Positions 1 through 13,436 are shown, numbered from the stretch's first letter. The stretch: 13,436 nucleotides of DNA from a virus (IMGVR_UViG_2802429224_000007:1-13436), one strand, 5' to 3'. The notes: generated by a model not told the origin, from the sequence alone. Translations and numbers: made by a program.

Positions 1-192
<192 letters not shown>

Positions 193-6366: not shown

Positions 6367-7107
6367 ATGCTTCATTGGGTTTGTACAAAATGTCAGTCTA
6401 AAAATTCTACGAAGGAATCAGTGTGTCCTGCGTGTGGAACTTCTTTTTGGTCGACGCAGAAAAAAGAAAGGAGAGGGTGTTTATTGTTGGTTGTAATGCT
6501 CTTCGTTGTGTTTTGGGTTATTGGGCAATTATCCGGAAACGAATCCGATTCACAGGTAAATAATATTCCATCGAAAGATCATATTAGCGATGAACTTGCT
6601 TTATCTGGAGTAGACAAGGCGAAACCGTATTCTTTTGTGCGTTATGACGACATAAGTTATGCGGGACGAAAGAGATTTAAGGTTTTTATAGTGTCGCCTG
6701 AATCTCAAGATTTAGAATCAAGAGTTTCGACAGCAAGGGCTGCGGCTATTGAGTGGCAGAAAGAAAAGAGAGCTGACTTTGTGTCTGTGTTGCTTCTACC
6801 TACGGAAAATTCGGAAGGTAGTTATCTATTGACAATGGCTGATTATTCTCCTGATGGTTGCGGAACTGGTGCCGTATGTGACAATAAAAAATGGGCTATA
6901 TCATCTAGTGATGTAATATTAACAAAATCACAACTTCAATCCATATCTTTGTGGAATGAATATAAGAAAAAGTTTGCGGGTAATGATGGGGTTTTGGATT
7001 TAAAGGAAGAAAAGAAATTGAAGCAGTTTATTAGTAAGCAGCTAAATATTCCTGTTAAGGATGTATTTGCTCCAAGAGTCTTGCCTTTAAAGGAAATCGT
7101 AGATTAA
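6367..7107 (+). CDS. Hypothetical membrane protein with N-terminal zinc ribbon (CxxC-x13-CxxC), one transmembrane helix and a ~190-aa C-terminal (likely periplasmic) domain
   Basis: 246-aa ORF: CTKCQSKNSTKESVCPACG, then hydrophobic segment CLLLVVMLFVVFWVIGQL, then a K/E/S-rich domain. Markedly AT-rich compared with the flanking core genes, consistent with horizontal acquisition. SD ggag about 8 nt upstream of ATG. Confidence 0.6.
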   Translation: MLHWVCTKCQSKNSTKESVCPACGTSFWSTQKKERRGCLLLVVMLFVVFWVIGQLSGNESDSQVNNIPSKDHISDELALSGVDKAKPYSFVRYDDISYAGRKRFKVFIVSPESQDLESRVSTARAAAIEWQKEKRADFVSVLLLPTENSEGSYLLTMADYSPDGCGTGAVCDNKKWAISSSDVILTKSQLQSISLWNEYKKKFAGNDGVLDLKEEKKLKQFISKQLNIPVKDVFAPRVLPLKEIVD

Positions 7108-7272: not shown

Positions 7273-7413
7273 TTACTGTTTACACTGTAAGAACGCCGCA
7301 AACTCCGCTCCCCAGAAGCTCATCCGTATTTCACACAGCGAGCCGTGCAGCATCCAGATGATGAGGATTGCCGTCACGCAGAACGTGATGACCGTAAGCG
7401 ATTTTTGCGACAT
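7273..7413 (-). CDS. hok: Hok/Gef-family type I toxin (small membrane-depolarising peptide), 46 aa
   Basis: Manual translation of the minus strand gives MSQKSLTVITFCVTAILIIWMLHGSLCEIRMSFWGAEFAAFLQCKQ. It has the family hallmarks: N-terminal transmembrane helix, SLCE(I/L) motif and C-terminal E(F/L)AAFL.CK (compare HokA ...SLCELHIKQESYELAAFLACKLKE). Strong SD aaggag 8 nt upstream of ATG 7413. Not in the ORF track because it is under 60 aa. Confidence 0.82.
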   Translation of the reverse strand: MSQKSLTVITFCVTAILIIWMLHGSLCEIRMSFWGAEFAAFLQCKQ

Positions 7414-7513
7414 AGCGCTTGCTCCTTTTTCGGGGAGGCGCTAACCTATCACTTGCTAAGGGTAGATGGTTAGGGCCTCGGTTAAACAAAAATGTTTTCC
7501 GGGGCCTTTCCAC
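7331..7513 (-). CDS. Mok-like overlapping reading frame (putative translational coupler for hok)
   Basis: 60-codon ORF in a different frame, starting about 100 nt upstream of hok (GTG 7513) and ending inside hok, as expected for mok in hok/sok loci. Basic, low-complexity product. Could also be a chance ORF. Confidence 0.3.
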   Translation of the reverse strand: MERPRKTFLFNRGPNHLPLASDRLAPPRKRSKRYVAKIAYGHHVLRDGNPHHLDAARLAV

Positions 7514-7599
7514 ATCCGGCCTTCAGGTATTCCCTCCAGCCATCAGCCGAAAGGCACCCGCGCGAATTCTAGCTTGGTTTTTTCCCTTGTTTCAATCCG

Positions 7600-7699: not shown

Positions 7700-8081
7700 C
7701 GTCCTGTTGCTGCGTAGATCGTCATGTGCGATCGAGGCGCGGTATTGATCCTTTTTTCAGTTTAATTCTGACTCTTGATTTTGCGCAGGCCGCGCTGCGT
7801 CTGGCTTCTTTGTTTGAGGGTTGTTTAACGCGATCCTTTTCGCGATCGTGTCTTGTCCCACGTAAAGTATGAAAACTCTTTTAATATCAGCCTGTTTTCT
7901 TTCTCCTGCCATTCATGAGATCGTAAAAATCCCTCTGAAAACTGCAAAAAATTTCAAAGCGTGAAATTTCAGATCTTCGCTTTTCCCTCAGTTGCTGCGC
8001 GGGCTGGCGGTCATTTTTGCACGGCAGAAAACTGAAAAACTGTTTCGACACAAAACCCGCGGGTTGGAGGGGGTAGCGCGG

Positions 8082-8124
8082 TTTACGTCACCTCACGCTT
8101 TACGTCACACCGTTTACGTGGTGT
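8082..8124. repeat. Three direct repeats of TTTACGTCAC / TTTACGTG (starts 8082, 8099, 8113), the last embedded in a palindrome cacacc-gtttacgt-ggtgtg
   Basis: Direct repeats spaced 17 and 14 bp apart inside an ORF-free region downstream of the phage-like operon. Resembles iteron or arm-type binding-site arrays. Confidence 0.45.
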
Positions 8125-8242
8125 GCGCATACAGCGCCGGAATGGCACGCAGAACGCATTAATCAGGTGGCAGATATGAAAACGCACGGCCTGAACCGTG
8201 CGTTGCGTGATGGGGCGTTTATGTGGATTTTATGCCCGGTGA

Positions 8243-9940
8243 TCAGGCGATAAGGTCGCCGTATTTTTCGCGCAGGCTCGTAGCCTGTTGGGCGTCTGCG
8301 GCAAGTTCGCTGCTGTTTGTTGGTGCGCCAGTGTTGCTGTGGGTGTGGTTTGCAGTGTGTGTGGCCAGCAACTGAACCAGATCCAGAATATCAATCAACA
8401 ACGTCAGCAGATTAAGTCCGGATTTTTCCCGTGAGCCACCGCGCCCAATAAATACAGTCGGGGCGGTAAATTCCAGGCCGCCGTCCGCCCGGCATGTTCT
8501 GCGGCCTCCCACGTTTTCGGTGAGGTTATGCTCGATAGTGGATGTCGCCCCTTTGAGTTTAGTCAGCAAATCCTGCGCTACCATCTGGATATGCTCACCG
8601 GCTGCGATCGCATAATGGCCAGTAGTAATGTGTTCTGTCTGACCTGTCATCAGCTTGCTGGTTCCCAGAACGCTGGTTATGTCGTTTGCCTGTACTGTTG
8701 TTGTTCTGGTTGTTGTTGTGCGTTCTTCCTGATCGCTGTTAATGGTTCGCCTGGCTGAATGCTCCCTGATTTGCTGGTCGGTTTCTCTGTGCCAGCTTCC
8801 GTCAGTCGTGACACGCTGAAACACTTCTGCGCGCTGTTGTTGCAATTGTTCGCCGGGTTTTACATCAGGCAGGTTATGACCAGCGGGTAAGATTTGCCTG
8901 ATAACAGGCTTATCCGGGCGTCCTTCAATGTTGGATATTTCCACGATGGTGCCTGCTGGCGGGTAGGCAAAACATCCCGCCTCACTGCCAGCCATGGGGA
9001 CGGGGAGTGGTACTGCCGGGTAAACAGGCGTATCGTTTTTATCGTTGCCGTTCTCATCAAGCAACTGCACATCGACGGCGTAGCGTGGGCGGAAGCTGTC
9101 GGCCACATCGCCCAGGGTGACGGATTCCGTTGGGGCAATGACGCGCGCCAGCCTGGTATGTAGAGTACCGCTGGCCAGTTCCGGGAACTGTGTTTCCATC
9201 TGTCTGCGCAATGGTGATTTGGAGACAGGGCTGCCCGTGACGGTAAGGCGCTCCCATGTCAGGGTCATTTTCTCGTTGTTGAGGGCTACGCGGGTAATGC
9301 GTCCGGCGGGAAGATTCACGCCCGGTCGCACAGTTTCCATAAACATGATGTCGATGCTGTTTCCGCCGCTTTGCCCGAGTGTGTACTGTTGCGGAATATC
9401 CGGCATTGTAATACTGGCAAATCGTGAATCAGCTGCGCTTCCCACAAATACAGAACCGTCCGGCATAGGGTGCCAGACGTAATCGCTGATACTGAATGCT
9501 CGCCCCAGTTGGCTGAGCAGTTGTGCTCCGCTGCCGCTGTGGGTGATGTAGGGAGTTGGTATACTGGCATAATCCGCATCCGGAGTGATAAAAACGATAC
9601 CGCTTTGTCGCCCCAGATTATCGAGTACCCCCCGCAACGTCGGGTGTTGCATGGAGCAAGGGAAATCAAAATCCAGCACAGCAGCCGCTTCACGAATAAA
9701 AAGGCGACGTGAGCCATTTTCAGCAGGTTGATCGCGCTCAATGTAGCCGGAGAAATAGCGCCATGCTTCACCGTCACGGCCGAGATCAATTTGTACCATT
9801 GCGCCGGCAAGGCTGTGTTCGGGTGACAGATTGTTAACAGAAATGAAGCCACGACCGGCAGCATTCAGGGTAAGAACAAGGCTTATATCGGCAATTTCCA
9901 CCCGTTCGCCATTAATCATGCAGCGTTGTATCAATTTCAT
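8243..9940 (-). CDS. Phage structural protein, putative baseplate hub / central spike or fiber-tip protein (C-terminal HxH metal-binding apex-like motif)
   Basis: 565-aa ORF and last gene of the operon. ATGA overlap with the upstream gene stop; SD gaggaagg upstream. C-terminus ...LLATHTANHTHSNTGAPTNSS resembles the HxH apex motifs of trimeric spikes and fibers (P2 gpV C-terminus HTHKHPGDSGGTTG; lambda Stf HxH repeats). N-terminal region loosely resembles gpD/gp27-like hub proteins. Recalled from memory, no search run. Confidence 0.4.
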   Translation of the reverse strand: MKLIQRCMINGERVEIADISLVLTLNAAGRGFISVNNLSPEHSLAGAMVQIDLGRDGEAWRYFSGYIERDQPAENGSRRLFIREAAAVLDFDFPCSMQHPTLRGVLDNLGRQSGIVFITPDADYASIPTPYITHSGSGAQLLSQLGRAFSISDYVWHPMPDGSVFVGSAADSRFASITMPDIPQQYTLGQSGGNSIDIMFMETVRPGVNLPAGRITRVALNNEKMTLTWERLTVTGSPVSKSPLRRQMETQFPELASGTLHTRLARVIAPTESVTLGDVADSFRPRYAVDVQLLDENGNDKNDTPVYPAVPLPVPMAGSEAGCFAYPPAGTIVEISNIEGRPDKPVIRQILPAGHNLPDVKPGEQLQQQRAEVFQRVTTDGSWHRETDQQIREHSARRTINSDQEERTTTTRTTTVQANDITSVLGTSKLMTGQTEHITTGHYAIAAGEHIQMVAQDLLTKLKGATSTIEHNLTENVGGRRTCRADGGLEFTAPTVFIGRGGSREKSGLNLLTLLIDILDLVQLLATHTANHTHSNTGAPTNSSELAADAQQATSLREKYGDLIA

Positions 9941-10512
9941 GTTTTCCCTTCCTCTTTCACGCTCCCGATGCCAACAGCATTCAGACCAGAGCCAACGGCA
10001 TCATTGATTTTTTTCCAGAACGAACTTTGCGTATTCATGCCTTTGTCTGGTACCTGTTCGCTGCCATTCTGGGTCTGCTGTCTGGCGATGGTTTTCTGCG
10101 AACCGCTGCGTGCGGATGCTTTCTCTGGCACGCTTAATTTTTCCCTGAGAGTAAAGGTGATCTGCCAGTGCATCTTTCCCTGTTGTTCCGTGGCATCAAT
10201 GCCACCAGAAAACACCCCCTGTCGCATATTGATTGCCTTCGCGGTAGCGTTAGCAATGCGATATGTTTTTTTGGCACCGTTGCTTTCTGTTGCCTCCGCA
10301 AGCTGAAAAATACGGGTCAGAATAGCTTCATCGTTAAAATCAATAACCCCCGACACGCGCAGCTCTTTAGCCTTGTTTCCCTGCTGGGCGCTCGTGGTGC
10401 TGGTTGACTGCCCGGACATATCTTTGTCCGGTAGTTGCATGGTGGCGCTGACGGTGATGTTGCGCAGCAGAATGGCTTCCCCGTCAAGCGCAAGGACAAT
10501 CATCTGGGTCAT
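9937..10512 (-). CDS. Hypothetical phage-associated protein (191 aa)
   Basis: Translationally coupled on both sides (29-nt overlap with the upstream gene, ATGA overlap with the downstream one). SD aaggga upstream of ATG 10512. No recognisable catalytic motif; Q/S/T-rich centre. Confidence 0.55.
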   Translation of the reverse strand: MTQMIVLALDGEAILLRNITVSATMQLPDKDMSGQSTSTTSAQQGNKAKELRVSGVIDFNDEAILTRIFQLAEATESNGAKKTYRIANATAKAINMRQGVFSGGIDATEQQGKMHWQITFTLREKLSVPEKASARSGSQKTIARQQTQNGSEQVPDKGMNTQSSFWKKINDAVGSGLNAVGIGSVKEEGKT

Positions 10513-11197
10513 GTAGTGCTTCCCTTAGTGATGAGAGATTATCGCCGACGAACAGCATCACAGCTGTAAAAACCCACTCGGGGTGTGGGATGTTTTTTTG
10601 TATCAGCACTGCAGCCTGGCTAAGGGCTCCCTTGTAGCAAAAGCGCCACACCGGGCAAAATTTTTGCCGGAGTGCGGCCTGCTGATCAGCGATTTCCTGT
10701 AAGGCTTTATCTCTCGCATTCATGAACTGATGCAGCGATGATGACAATGTTTCCGGTGATGTGGCGGCAGGAGTGGCTGCCTGTGCAATGGTTGCTGCCA
10801 GCGACATGCTGCGAGTGGTCTGTGTCGACAGCATTATCGGTTCCGGAAGTGATGTTGCCGGTCTGGCGGGGATTTGCATTCTGCTGATGGCCAGTGAAAG
10901 TTGACTGGAAATCATGCGGGACATTCGCCCCACCTCTGGCAATGGAAATGCGCCTGAAAATTGCCTGGCGAGTGATAAAAACTCGCCAGCAGAAGGAGCG
11001 CAAAACAACAGCGCCACAATGTCTTTTTCTGTGCTTTCTTTCAGGTAGGGTAAAAGTGCAGATACAGCATTTTCGGGGCTGAGATAACGCCCCGATGGTT
11101 TGATGTTTCCGGTATTTTCTGACCATGGATGAAGGCAAACCACAGAGCATTTAATGTTCATGGCTGACGGGCGCAGAATTGCCTTTTCCCATTTCAT
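10484..11197 (-). CDS. Hypothetical phage-associated protein (237 aa), S/T/A/P-rich low-complexity central region
   Basis: ATGA overlap with the upstream gene stop (11194-11197). Longest frame across the interval, but unusual composition and a nested alternative-frame ORF (10707..11150) make the coding call less secure. Composition is reminiscent of tape-measure or linker proteins. Confidence 0.45.
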   Translation of the reverse strand: MKWEKAILRPSAMNIKCSVVCLHPWSENTGNIKPSGRYLSPENAVSALLPYLKESTEKDIVALLFCAPSAGEFLSLARQFSGAFPLPEVGRMSRMISSQLSLAISRMQIPARPATSLPEPIMLSTQTTRSMSLAATIAQAATPAATSPETLSSSLHQFMNARDKALQEIADQQAALRQKFCPVWRFCYKGALSQAAVLIQKNIPHPEWVFTAVMLFVGDNLSSLREALHDPDDCPCA

Positions 11198-11766
11198 TCT
11201 GACTCTCCAGCCTGAAAAGCGCGGATGTCGGCAAGATTATTCAGGCTATCCAGCACATCCTTCATCTGTCGCTGACGTCGATAAATTTCATCGTTGCGGT
11301 TAACTTGCGCCCGTGCCATTGCTGTAGCCAGCTCTTCAAGCTCTGGCATCGACATCTTCACTTGTTGATTATCGGCGTCACCCCATGCCATAACGTCCCG
11401 TGCTGTGTCGGATTTCGCAGCCATTACTACCGGATAAAGGCGGGTCAGTGAGTCCGGGCCAGCGTTCCAGGTGCGTCCGTTCCATTCGAATGCGAACGGC
11501 TGCGCTTCCTGTTCTGTTCGCCAGGCTTCGATTTCCTGGCGTTTTGCGGCTTTTGCCGCTGCGATAAGTTCCGGCGTGACGGTGAACGGGGCGATTTCGC
11601 CCCATTTGCCGCTTTGCAGTTCCCGCCAGACTCGCTGGCCTGTTGTTGCTGTGTCTTCTGATGTGGCTGTGTAGGGAACAAATTCCCCCATTCCTTCAAA
11701 AAGCACTTCGCAGTCAATCGCTCCAGATTCCAGATAACGTGGATTCAGAATTTTTATAACTCGCAT
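11194..11766 (-). CDS. Putative tail fiber assembly / chaperone-like protein (190 aa, acidic, helical C-terminal half)
   Basis: TAATG overlap with the upstream 419-aa gene; SD gagga. Position directly after a fiber-like gene and the pattern ...FEWNGRTW...MSMPELEELATAMARAQ... resemble phage tail-assembly chaperone families (DUF4376-like). Assignment from memory only. Confidence 0.4.
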   Translation of the reverse strand: MRVIKILNPRYLESGAIDCEVLFEGMGEFVPYTATSEDTATTGQRVWRELQSGKWGEIAPFTVTPELIAAAKAAKRQEIEAWRTEQEAQPFAFEWNGRTWNAGPDSLTRLYPVVMAAKSDTARDVMAWGDADNQQVKMSMPELEELATAMARAQVNRNDEIYRRQRQMKDVLDSLNNLADIRAFQAGESE

Positions 11767-13025
11767 TACGCAATCCTCATAAACAGCCCTACAACAGCCC
11801 TTGTGTAGACATTGACCGAGTCGGTGCTGGATAAAGAAATGTAAGTGCCTGAAAGGTCGGCTCCACCTACAAGTGCAGTGGGGCCTGATTCAAATCCTGA
11901 AGAACGAAAATCCGCATAAAACGTCGCCTGTCGAAGCCTTGAGCCGGAATATGACCGTCCACGAATCAGCGTTTTTTTGCTTTCGCTGTCTGAATCTCCG
12001 GTATATGCGGCAAGAACAAGTCCTCCAATATCAGGGAGGTTGTGGTATGAGTCAGTCCATGAATACAATACTCGCGTAAAATCATCCACCTTAAGTAGTT
12101 TTTTTTCCCAACTGTCAGGCAGGGTTGCAGGGGTGATACCGCTGTGAATTCTTGCTGTATAACTCTCCCCATTTATTCCTTTAAAAATTACCTGCTTCGT
12201 TTCTTTTTGCTGATTCTCCGGGGTGGTATTTGTGCGAATTTCAATATCCAGATAGCCGGAAAAAACCAGCGTGCTGGGGCCAGTAATTATGGGGTTCTTT
12301 TTACTGCCACCGAACTGGCTGACAAGATAACGCCCGGGTGGTGTTTCACGTACCCACTGTAAAAATTCGGTCGGCCCCCTTTCGGCACTGAATTTAATTT
12401 CCTCTCCATATTTAAACAGTGCACCAAAGCCGAATGCACCTGGTATGGCAAGGCAACCTTCGGTGCGGTCGTAAATATCGCTCTGGGATTCCATTGTAGA
12501 CGCACTTTTTAGTCCCAGATTGTTTCGGGATTCCTGCTGCGCCTCTTCTCCCTCTGCTGCAATTTCTGACAATCGGTTAGGAGCTTTCAGCATTGATTTC
12601 AGCTCGGGGGTAATATCCACCTGCCAGCTCTGTGGAGGAACGGTAATCTGCGCAGCCTGAGCCACGCCCTGATAAGTAATCGTGAAATTCCTGACCAGTG
12701 ACTCGCCAGTATGTTTCTGGCGAACAGGGGTTTTTATTACGCCGCACAGTGTTCTGCTGGCCTGATGAATGAGGCAAATCCAGTCATAGCTGAATGCACA
12801 GTCATCAGGAACAACTGCGCTACACACAATATTGTTCGGGTTTAACTGGCCATAGGTCAGTTCATTCACAGCATATGTGATTTTTTCTTCCGGAACGGTA
12901 TTATCTTCGCGCGTTGGTTCCCGCTCCATCAGAGCAAAAATAATGGCGTCAGGACGTGCAGGTAAATTACTGGCTGTGCATTCGGCAACCCACTTTTCAA
13001 ATGCTTTCGTTAACAGTGCGCTCAT
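11766..13025 (-). CDS. Putative phage tail fiber protein (419 aa) with a divergent tail-collar/fiber N-terminal domain
   Basis: N-terminal ~120 aa follows the spacing pattern of P2 gpH / Mu gpS-type fiber N-domains (VVPDD..F.YDWICL...TL.GV compared with VIPADVGGF..RE.GL.D..G.LIAV), but the conserved GDG motif is absent. Followed by a chaperone-like gene. Low-confidence functional call. Confidence 0.4.
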   Translation of the reverse strand: MSALLTKAFEKWVAECTASNLPARPDAIIFALMEREPTREDNTVPEEKITYAVNELTYGQLNPNNIVCSAVVPDDCAFSYDWICLIHQASRTLCGVIKTPVRQKHTGESLVRNFTITYQGVAQAAQITVPPQSWQVDITPELKSMLKAPNRLSEIAAEGEEAQQESRNNLGLKSASTMESQSDIYDRTEGCLAIPGAFGFGALFKYGEEIKFSAERGPTEFLQWVRETPPGRYLVSQFGGSKKNPIITGPSTLVFSGYLDIEIRTNTTPENQQKETKQVIFKGINGESYTARIHSGITPATLPDSWEKKLLKVDDFTRVLYSWTDSYHNLPDIGGLVLAAYTGDSDSESKKTLIRGRSYSGSRLRQATFYADFRSSGFESGPTALVGGADLSGTYISLSSTDSVNVYTRAVVGLFMRIA

Positions 13026-13031
13026 TACTTC

Positions 13032-13436
13032 TTAATTCTCGCTAATGTTCTGCGGTAATTCTGGCCATACAATCGAGGCATACGATGCTTTATCTGTAAC
13101 CTGGCTGAATGTCATCTGCTGTAGTGCTTTCGCATAAATACGGCATGCTTTCAGTTTTTCCCTGTCTTCGTCGCTGATTAATCCCAGCAGCAGGTCTTTT
13201 TCCCATTCGCTGGTCATGATGCTGGCCTGTTTTAACAGTGCATCACGCTCATCTTCCGCTTTAAGTTTGTAGTCAAAAACAAATGCATCATTGCGGTAGA
13301 ACCAGTAACCCGACGCCTCAATGCGACGATTGGCGGTAATATCCGGTAGCTCAATCACGCTTTTATTTTCCGGGCAGATTGAGGTGATGTCTTTTCCAAC
13401 CCAGACCACTTCGCCAGTTTCAACATAAATAACTTT
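13032..13436 (-). CDS. Tail fiber assembly protein, P2 gpG / Tfa family (5'-truncated by the window end)
   Basis: The frame is open to the window edge; the ORF-track start at 13409 is a GTG and in-frame codons continue upstream (KVIYVETGEVVWVGKD...). Matches gpG-type Tfa as I recall it: VIELPDITANRR (compare VVEVPDITSNRR) and the C-terminal ...Y..L...D....I.WPELP motif. Confidence 0.7.
   Translation of the reverse strand, partial: KVIYVETGEVVWVGKDITSICPENKSVIELPDITANRRIEASGYWFYRNDAFVFDYKLKAEDERDALLKQASIMTSEWEKDLLLGLISDEDREKLKACRIYAKALQQMTFSQVTDKASYASIVWPELPQNISEN

Follow-up and report, generated by a model that had tools for sequence, protein, structure and literature searches.

The window, that is, the whole stretch of 13,436 nucleotides that was analysed, carries at positions 8243-9940 an open reading frame of 565 codons plus stop with an ATG start, as obtained by translation of the minus strand. 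Plus-strand coding of the same interval was ruled out by abundant stops, which places the gene on the minus strand. It is the last of six co-directional minus-strand genes forming an operon. The start ATG overlaps the TGA of the preceding gene (ATGA at 9937-9940) and is preceded by AGAGGAAGGG, a Shine-Dalgarno ribosome-binding site. The preliminary description of this DNA had placed a 565-aa terminal operon gene here; the reading frame and its last position in the operon bear this out, and the strand is added to it. The operon and its end comprise the following features:

8181..8204, minus strand: hairpin resembling a terminator, behind the last gene of the operon (stem of 10 bp, then UUUU)
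8243..9940, minus strand: whole gene, fused baseplate hub and central spike, orthologue of HP1 orf35 and K139/Kappa kp45 (ORF; PHROG 2258; tblastn)
9937..10512, minus strand: 191-aa upstream partner, HP1 ORF34-type baseplate complex protein, possibly P2 gpU-like (PF25759 HP1_ORF34, E 2.7e-53; PHROG 1398)
10484..11197, minus strand: 237-aa upstream partner, HP1 orf33-type protein (PHROG 31292 and 1677)
11194-11766, minus strand: DUF4376 gene (domain match)
11766-13025, minus strand: tail-collar fibre gene (domain match)
13032-13436, minus strand: tail-fibre-assembly gene, cut by the window edge (domain match)

The homologue of the 191-aa protein in phage ACA1 is annotated as 'putative gpU-like', an assignment which its authors mark as uncertain. 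The 237-aa orf33-like protein had no Pfam, NCBIfam or meaningful PDB match, and its ACA1 homologue, gp46, was found in virions by mass spectrometry (PMC10612066); it is a component of the HP1-type hub/baseplate module with no role assigned. Searching both upstream proteins against PDB by phmmer gave nothing meaningful, and a match of the 237-aa protein to NDUEG3 covered 40 residues only and was taken as spurious. The terminator-like hairpin, also recorded as inverted repeat I6, lies 39-62 nt beyond the stop of the 565-aa gene, and the 81-nt stretch containing it (8165-8245) has a fold of -21.6 kcal/mol with z -2.4; the hairpin at 8181-8204 does not satisfy the T-run rule of a consensus terminator scanner.

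To the left of the gene lie a hok/gef toxin gene, a low-GC DUF4875 ORF and the E. coli core genes flk, yfcJ, fabB and mnmC. The product of the DUF4875 ORF (6367-7107, plus strand) is 246 aa long and combines a zinc ribbon at the N-terminus with a predicted membrane segment and the DUF4875 domain (E 3e-32). The ORF, which is also found in E. coli AJ1, lies between flk and the prophage end in an island of 39% GC, and may be either prophage cargo or a separate islet. The Hok/Gef-family toxin gene (~7273-7413, minus strand) adjoins the prophage end. Many E. coli and Stx phages contain sequences that share 90-92% identity with its leader at 7420-7583, and an Rfam scan of the window gave no Sok or Hok match above threshold. 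Within the 823 bp between hok and the 565-aa gene, phage matches were obtained over the hok leader only, and no cos or att site was assigned. Two 13-nt direct repeats, CG(G/C)TTTACGTCAC, 17 nt apart, are found together with a third, TTTACGTGG, at 8079-8121 (plus strand). These repeats are non-coding and lie just downstream of the operon terminator, near the usual cos end of HP1-type genomes. The window holds no tRNA gene and no RNA element tied to the 565-aa gene. Its only Rfam match is naRNA4 (CssrE, a REP-derived nucleoid-associated RNA) at 63-141 (plus strand, 74.8 bits), downstream of mnmC and far from the gene.

The window is identical to an entire draft contig, PTST01000056.1 (13,436 bp, GCA_002965365.1), which is broken inside the tail-fibre-assembly gene. 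The preliminary description had remarked that no sheath, tube or full-length tape-measure gene is visible. This is true of the window, and it is an assembly-edge artefact, since the contig ends inside the fibre-assembly gene; all three genes are present in the complete genomes of E. coli AJ1 and A2. In AJ1 the same module occurs at 93% identity and at the same flk-side site. Ahead of it lie a second fibre gene, gpI-like and gpJ-like genes, a DUF2590 (gpW-like) gene, a 2.1-kb tape-measure gene and chaperones, followed further on by lysis genes, the tube, a DUF2586 sheath and P2-type head, terminase, portal and replication genes. In A2 the gene is found at 98.2% identity, with the same layout at another chromosomal site. 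With sheath, tube, tape measure and DUF2590/J/I genes adjoining the module in such complete genomes (93-98% identity), the setting loses the unusual character first ascribed to it. Altogether the gene is present in 64 of the 5,426 complete E. coli genomes.

The truncated contig, which carries only the distal part of the tail operon, also raises the question of whether the gene is part of a functional phage at all, or instead of the remnant of a decayed prophage or an element of the tailocin type. The related prophage of A2 points the same way in that its terminase is frameshifted and its second fibre gene is disrupted by an insertion. Against this, the 565-aa ORF is intact, as are the five genes upstream of it, with tight coupling throughout; the identical protein is also encoded on independent contigs; and AJ1 holds, at the same site, an apparently complete prophage with head, lysis and replication genes. 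A remnant or tailocin origin is accordingly regarded as improbable.

The AJ1-type prophage carries two tandem fibre/accessory cassettes (window 11194-13436, minus strand; locus L001 24092-28346), the first with a long tail-collar fibre and a gpG-like assembly protein, the second with a 419-aa tail-collar fibre and the DUF4376 protein. This arrangement suggests two alternative or simultaneous receptor-binding proteins.

The family of the 565-aa protein was established by profile and translated searches. PHROG 2258 ('baseplate protein') matches residues 1-565 over profile positions 1-544 of 544 with E 4.3e-233, and PHROG 4011 matches residues 243-559 only. By tblastn the protein is 42-47% identical to its counterparts in HP1, HP2, ESSI-2 and SW5, and the family was found in 75 phage records, which include Haemophilus HP1/HP2 (orf35), Vibrio K139/Kappa (kp45), Aeromonas phiO18P, Cronobacter ESSI-2, Salmonella SW5 and Yersinia and Pasteurella phages. 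In these records the gene always ends the late region, behind orf33-like and orf34-like genes. The synteny of the window is that of HP1, Kappa and phiO18P, with the PF25759 HP1_ORF34 and PHROG 1677/31292 genes directly upstream and the fibre and chaperone genes before them. A position after the fibre genes is the standard orf33-orf34-orf35 layout of HP1, K139 and ESSI-2. Within the HP1 orf35 family the 565-aa protein is ordinary, neither unusual nor new. When set beside HP1 orf35 (UniProt P51739) and its orthologues in HP2, K139/Kappa (kp45), phiO18P (gp46), ESSI-2 and SW5, it shares with them the full-length family (PHROG 2258), the last-late-gene position, the fusion and the helix-HxH-helix end described below. 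The differences amount to sequence divergence and small shaft indels at residues about 460-500, the window copy being located in an E. coli prophage beside flk. No experimental structure exists for HP1 orf35 or these orthologues. The phages that carry the family form the HP1 subgroup of Peduoviridae, and the tail module of this subgroup stands very far from the P2 one (PMC10612066).

The domains of the protein were delimited by structure prediction and sequence comparison as follows:

9233..9940, minus strand: hub domain, residues 1-236, a compact version of the gp27 / P2 gpD / Mu gp44 fold (AlphaFold2 model, structure comparison)
9212..9256, minus strand: fusion junction, about residues 229-243 (ends and starts of split homologues)
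8885..9085, minus strand: probable OB-fold domain, about residues 286-352, approximate limits (PF04717, TIGR01646, A1 profile, motif)
8426..8845, minus strand: probable triple-stranded beta-helix shaft, about residues 366-505, approximate limits in a low-confidence model (model, PF22178, A1 profile)
8246..8416, minus strand: apex module, residues 509-565, with a hydrophobic helix 511-531, the HxH, a Gly/Pro-rich loop and an amphipathic C-terminal helix 543-561 (predicted structure)
8339..8347, minus strand: HxH, H532-T533-H534, putative His-cage metal site on the threefold axis (translation, conservation)

An AlphaFold2 monomer model was built from an alignment of 32 sequences (A1); positions in A1 and in the first model equal the protein numbering minus one. 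Residues 1-236 were modelled at pLDDT 80-93. In structural comparison this region scored 20.5 with the MuSo2 hub (220 residues at 2.6 Å), 19.2 with Mu gp44, 15.5 with the pyocin R2 hub, a homologue of P2 gpD, and 10.0 with the compact Pam3 hub. In the predicted model, kinship to the gp27/gpD/Mu gp44 hubs therefore holds at the fold level. Pfam Phage_GPD (PF05954) gave no match at E <= 0.1. The loose hub-likeness of the N-terminal third, as it was first described, is upheld as a gp27/gpD/Mu gp44 fold and corrected in its extent, since residues 1-236 make up ~42% of the chain and not one third. The hub of ~236 aa is shorter than the 387 aa of P2 gpD, and the separate hub of Mu carries an extra domain of roughly 100 residues.

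The sequence signals for the spike are weak yet colinear and of the right kind. The probable OB-fold was matched by PF04717 (Phage_base_V) at residues 310-347 with E 0.019, below the cut-off, and by TIGR01646 (vgr_GE) at 311-363. The A1 profile run against PDB found the OB regions of VgrS and VgrG at E 0.0075-0.015, and the motif P-x-G-T-x-V-E-x-x-x-x-x-G-R-P-D-K-P aligns with gpV and VgrG. For the shaft, PF22178 (Gp5_trimer_C) matched residues 393-442 with E 0.057, and the A1 profile found T4 gp5 beta-helix fragments in PDB at E 0.003-0.01 over profile positions 417-503. In the monomer model the shaft appears as long beta-hairpins at pLDDT 35-45, as is expected of an intertwined trimer. When the single protein was run against PDB by phmmer, only sub-threshold matches to VgrG and Pvc8 were obtained.

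Foldseek gave a graded picture. Fused hub-spikes came first, over ~600-640 columns (AlgoCIS 1.8e-17, Anabaena CIS 2.3e-17, Pvc8 7e-17, VgrG 8e-15, Afp8 1.7e-14), then free hubs, then free spikes (Mu gp45 4.5e-4, P2 gpV 0.023, R2 spike 0.039). Resemblance of the C-terminal half to gpV/gp45/gp5-type spikes is thus supported. Alignment of the family by hhalign with the single sequences of P2 gpD (E 0.31) and P2 gpV (E 0.68) was not significant, and similarity of the family to gpD and gpV is not detectable by profile-to-sequence comparison; kinship of hub and spike to the P2 proteins is consequently seen only by fold and by published HHpred. The single-chain hub plus spike of VgrG-like architecture that had been proposed from the DNA is recovered here, with a hub fold and a spike-like half, and structural similarity to both hub and spike folds was found.

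VgrG proteins are among the best structural matches, and the orthologue in AJ1 is named by PGAP after the type VI secretion (T6SS) Vgr family, so that the protein could be read as a bacterial VgrG spike and not a phage virion protein. The sequence matches behind such a name are weak: TIGR01646 reaches 19.7 bits for a cut-off of 121.8, and TIGR03361 16.1 for 186.35. The hub is, moreover, ~130 residues shorter than the gp27 module of VgrG. The gene closes a phage tail operon and is translationally coupled to HP1-type baseplate genes, its orthologues occur in the isolated phages HP1, K139, ESSI-2 and phiO18P, and no T6SS genes are found nearby in the complete genomes of AJ1 and A2, the neighbours in the window being phage tail and E. 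coli core genes. Context and family cut-offs effectively refute a T6SS VgrG, which we consider extremely improbable. [quoted passage not shown] They differ in that their hub is about 370 aa and their spike is a blunt beta-helix with a separate PAAR-type tip, whereas the window protein, a temperate-phage virion protein, has its own HxH apex.

A hub-spike fusion is normal for the HP1 group and already on record: the homologues of gpD and gpV in HP1 were stated in 2023 to be fused (PMC10612066, Table S1 footnote d). Searched with a profile, 1.84 billion representatives yielded 891 relatives, and the best 150 of these included 12 fused full-length proteins, 26 free hubs and 60 free spikes. Split forms are therefore commoner than fused ones among the best 150 representatives. 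In the same set, the free hubs are 226-244 aa long and cover profile positions 1-228, and the free spikes start at profile positions 238-247; the split sizes are about 230 aa for the hub and about 320 aa for the spike. Phages phi3 of Pseudomonas, SMHB1 of Salinivibrio and ACA1 of Pseudoalteromonas have the split form, in two overlapping ORFs, with halves homologous to those of the window protein and the same apex layout; PHROG 4011 is the family of the split spike. In ACA1, gp48 was assigned to gpD and gp49, the tail spike, to gpV by HHpred, and both were found in virions (PMC10612066); the corresponding pair in SMHB1 is also gp48/gp49. The hub and spike ORFs of SMHB1, ACA1 and phi3 overlap by ~10-28 nt in different frames (L003 5989-7397; L004 5818-7448; L007 3001-4655). 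In P2, gpD and gpV are encoded by two genes in different operons, as opposed to the one chain in the window; PA0628 and PA0616 of the R2 pyocin were compared alongside them as a two-gene hub and spike. Mu gp44 (hub) and gp45 (spike) are likewise products of separate genes, and in Vibrio phage XM1, a solved 'simple' myophage, hub and spike are separate and unresolved in the structure.

The motif singled out in the preliminary description, THTANHTHSNTGAP, lies at residues 527-540 and contains H532-T533-H534, the only HxH in the 565-aa protein. The 565 aa include 15 His, for which chance would give ~0.4 HxH, and for this reason the HxH alone means little; its significance comes from conservation. 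Both H532 and H534 are invariant in alignment A1 (47-87% identity). The HxH is kept in HP1 (ATHTHRG), Kappa (ATHTHGG), phiO18P (AGHTHGS), phi3 (AGHVHPP), SMHB1 (ASHTHRS) and ACA1 (ENHGHTS). It was found in 56 of the 58 representatives that reach the C-terminus, which are mutually <50% identical, and in these 56 it always stands 30-44 residues from the C-terminus (31 residues in the window protein). An HxH apex-like C-terminus was therefore rightly noticed. The two remaining representatives (P0232 and P0250) have T-V-T instead of HxH, and a further one of the 58 (P0195) has a short gpV-like apex at the same place. P0232 and P0250 are spike-only proteins that retain the whole helix-loop-helix apex; such cage-less variants recall the viable cage-replacement mutants of P2 gpV.

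A C-terminal HxH is the accepted marker of the spike Apex domain, where three copies make up a six-histidine cage around an Fe ion, and a separate PAAR tip is proposed to be absent from such spikes (bioRxiv 10.1101/2023.02.25.529910; PMC12407873). Trimeric fibres, too, have HxH sites with iron or zinc along their length (bioRxiv 10.1101/2023.02.25.529910; PMC12407873), and the HxH might instead be a fibre-type chain-register clamp in a tail-fibre tip or receptor-binding protein. A fibre tip was raised at the outset as an alternative, and it fits a gene coming after the fibre genes. The hub fold stands against it, as do the separate fibre and chaperone genes upstream at 11766-13025 and beyond. 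No fibre family was matched by the 565-aa protein in Pfam or PHROGs, and nothing fibre-like was seen. The fibre tip was accordingly dropped, with hardly any likelihood left to it.

The apex differs in its predicted structure from that of P2 gpV. In gpV, 21 residues with beta structure form the apex cone, and 12 residues follow the HxH. In the window protein a helix precedes the HxH, and 31 residues including another helix follow it. The first helix, 511-531, is very hydrophobic and confidently predicted as alpha-helical; the second, 543-561, is amphipathic with pLDDT 87-88. The last 55-59 residues of the model superpose on antiparallel helical hairpins. It is quite possible, though we put it forward tentatively, that the spikes of the HP1 subgroup end in a trimer of such hairpins, in which residues 511-531 would form a coiled coil, the histidines a distal His6 metal cage, and the outer helices 543-561 would pack antiparallel to give a six-helix bundle. 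With about the same reserve, we suggest that this helical-hairpin apex is conserved in both fused and split forms, rare variants swapping the cage for T-V-T. A helix-HxH-helix apex, as modelled, is without a solved counterpart and would be a mildly new point; no HP1- or K139-type baseplate structure was found in the literature.

The same segment may be read in another way, with the hub-spike assignment retained: the helix-HxH-helix could be a trimerisation or register element, or a plug binding back on the shaft, and the leading point would then be formed otherwise or by another protein. The confidently predicted alpha-helix in place of a beta-helix before the HxH is in keeping with this, as are the distance of the HxH from the end (30-44 residues versus 12 in gpV), the two representatives without the histidines and the finding that the P2 apex and cage are dispensable for infection in the laboratory (bioRxiv 10.1101/2023.02.25.529910). 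Nevertheless, if helix 1 prolongs the shaft and helix 2 returns antiparallel to it, the HxH at the turn is the most distal point; moreover, the annotation of the complete AJ1 and A2 prophages shows no tip gene, PAAR-like or other, and P0195 ends with its short gpV-like apex at just this place. We hold a register element or plug to be unlikely and prefer the distal apex.

Taken together, the protein is very probably the central hub-spike of the contractile tail of an HP1-type E. coli prophage (Peduoviridae, HP1 subgroup). Its working, as we infer it by analogy with known hubs and spikes, would be as follows. Three copies would form one complex at the centre of the baseplate, in which the hub domains (1-236) would build a pseudo-sixfold ring joining the sixfold tube end, that is, the tube-initiator ring and the C-terminus of the tape measure, to the threefold spike. 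The OB-fold, the intertwined beta-helix and the apex would act as a needle driven by sheath contraction through the host outer membrane into the periplasm. For P2 gpV, it has been described that sheath contraction pushes the needle through the outer membrane into the periplasm (PMC12407873). One HxH per chain would, in a trimer, give a six-histidine cage, most likely holding Fe or another metal ion on the axis, and an apex of its own would make a separate PAAR-type tip protein unnecessary, as in P2 gpV. The complex would then leave the tube end so that DNA can exit. The functions of gpD and gpV would in this way be carried by one chain, whose gene closes the late operon behind the fibre genes.

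Naming of the family is inconsistent in the records. It is a 'hypothetical protein' in most E. coli genomes, a 'type VI secretion system Vgr family protein' in AJ1 (L001 21141-22838; RefSeq records), a 'head completion protein' in SW5 and a 'baseplate protein' in ESSI-2 and HP1. The first of these names is uninformative and the Vgr name, used in the newest records, is misleading; a fitting name is baseplate hub-central spike fusion protein of an HP1-type prophage. Beyond annotation the importance is small, and there is no sign of a new kind of system. The family nonetheless offers a compact natural case of hub-spike fusion and fission, with a hub of about 230 aa that occurs either split or fused, and its helical-hairpin apex, if true, would represent a class of membrane-piercing apex that is structurally distinct and has yet to be solved.
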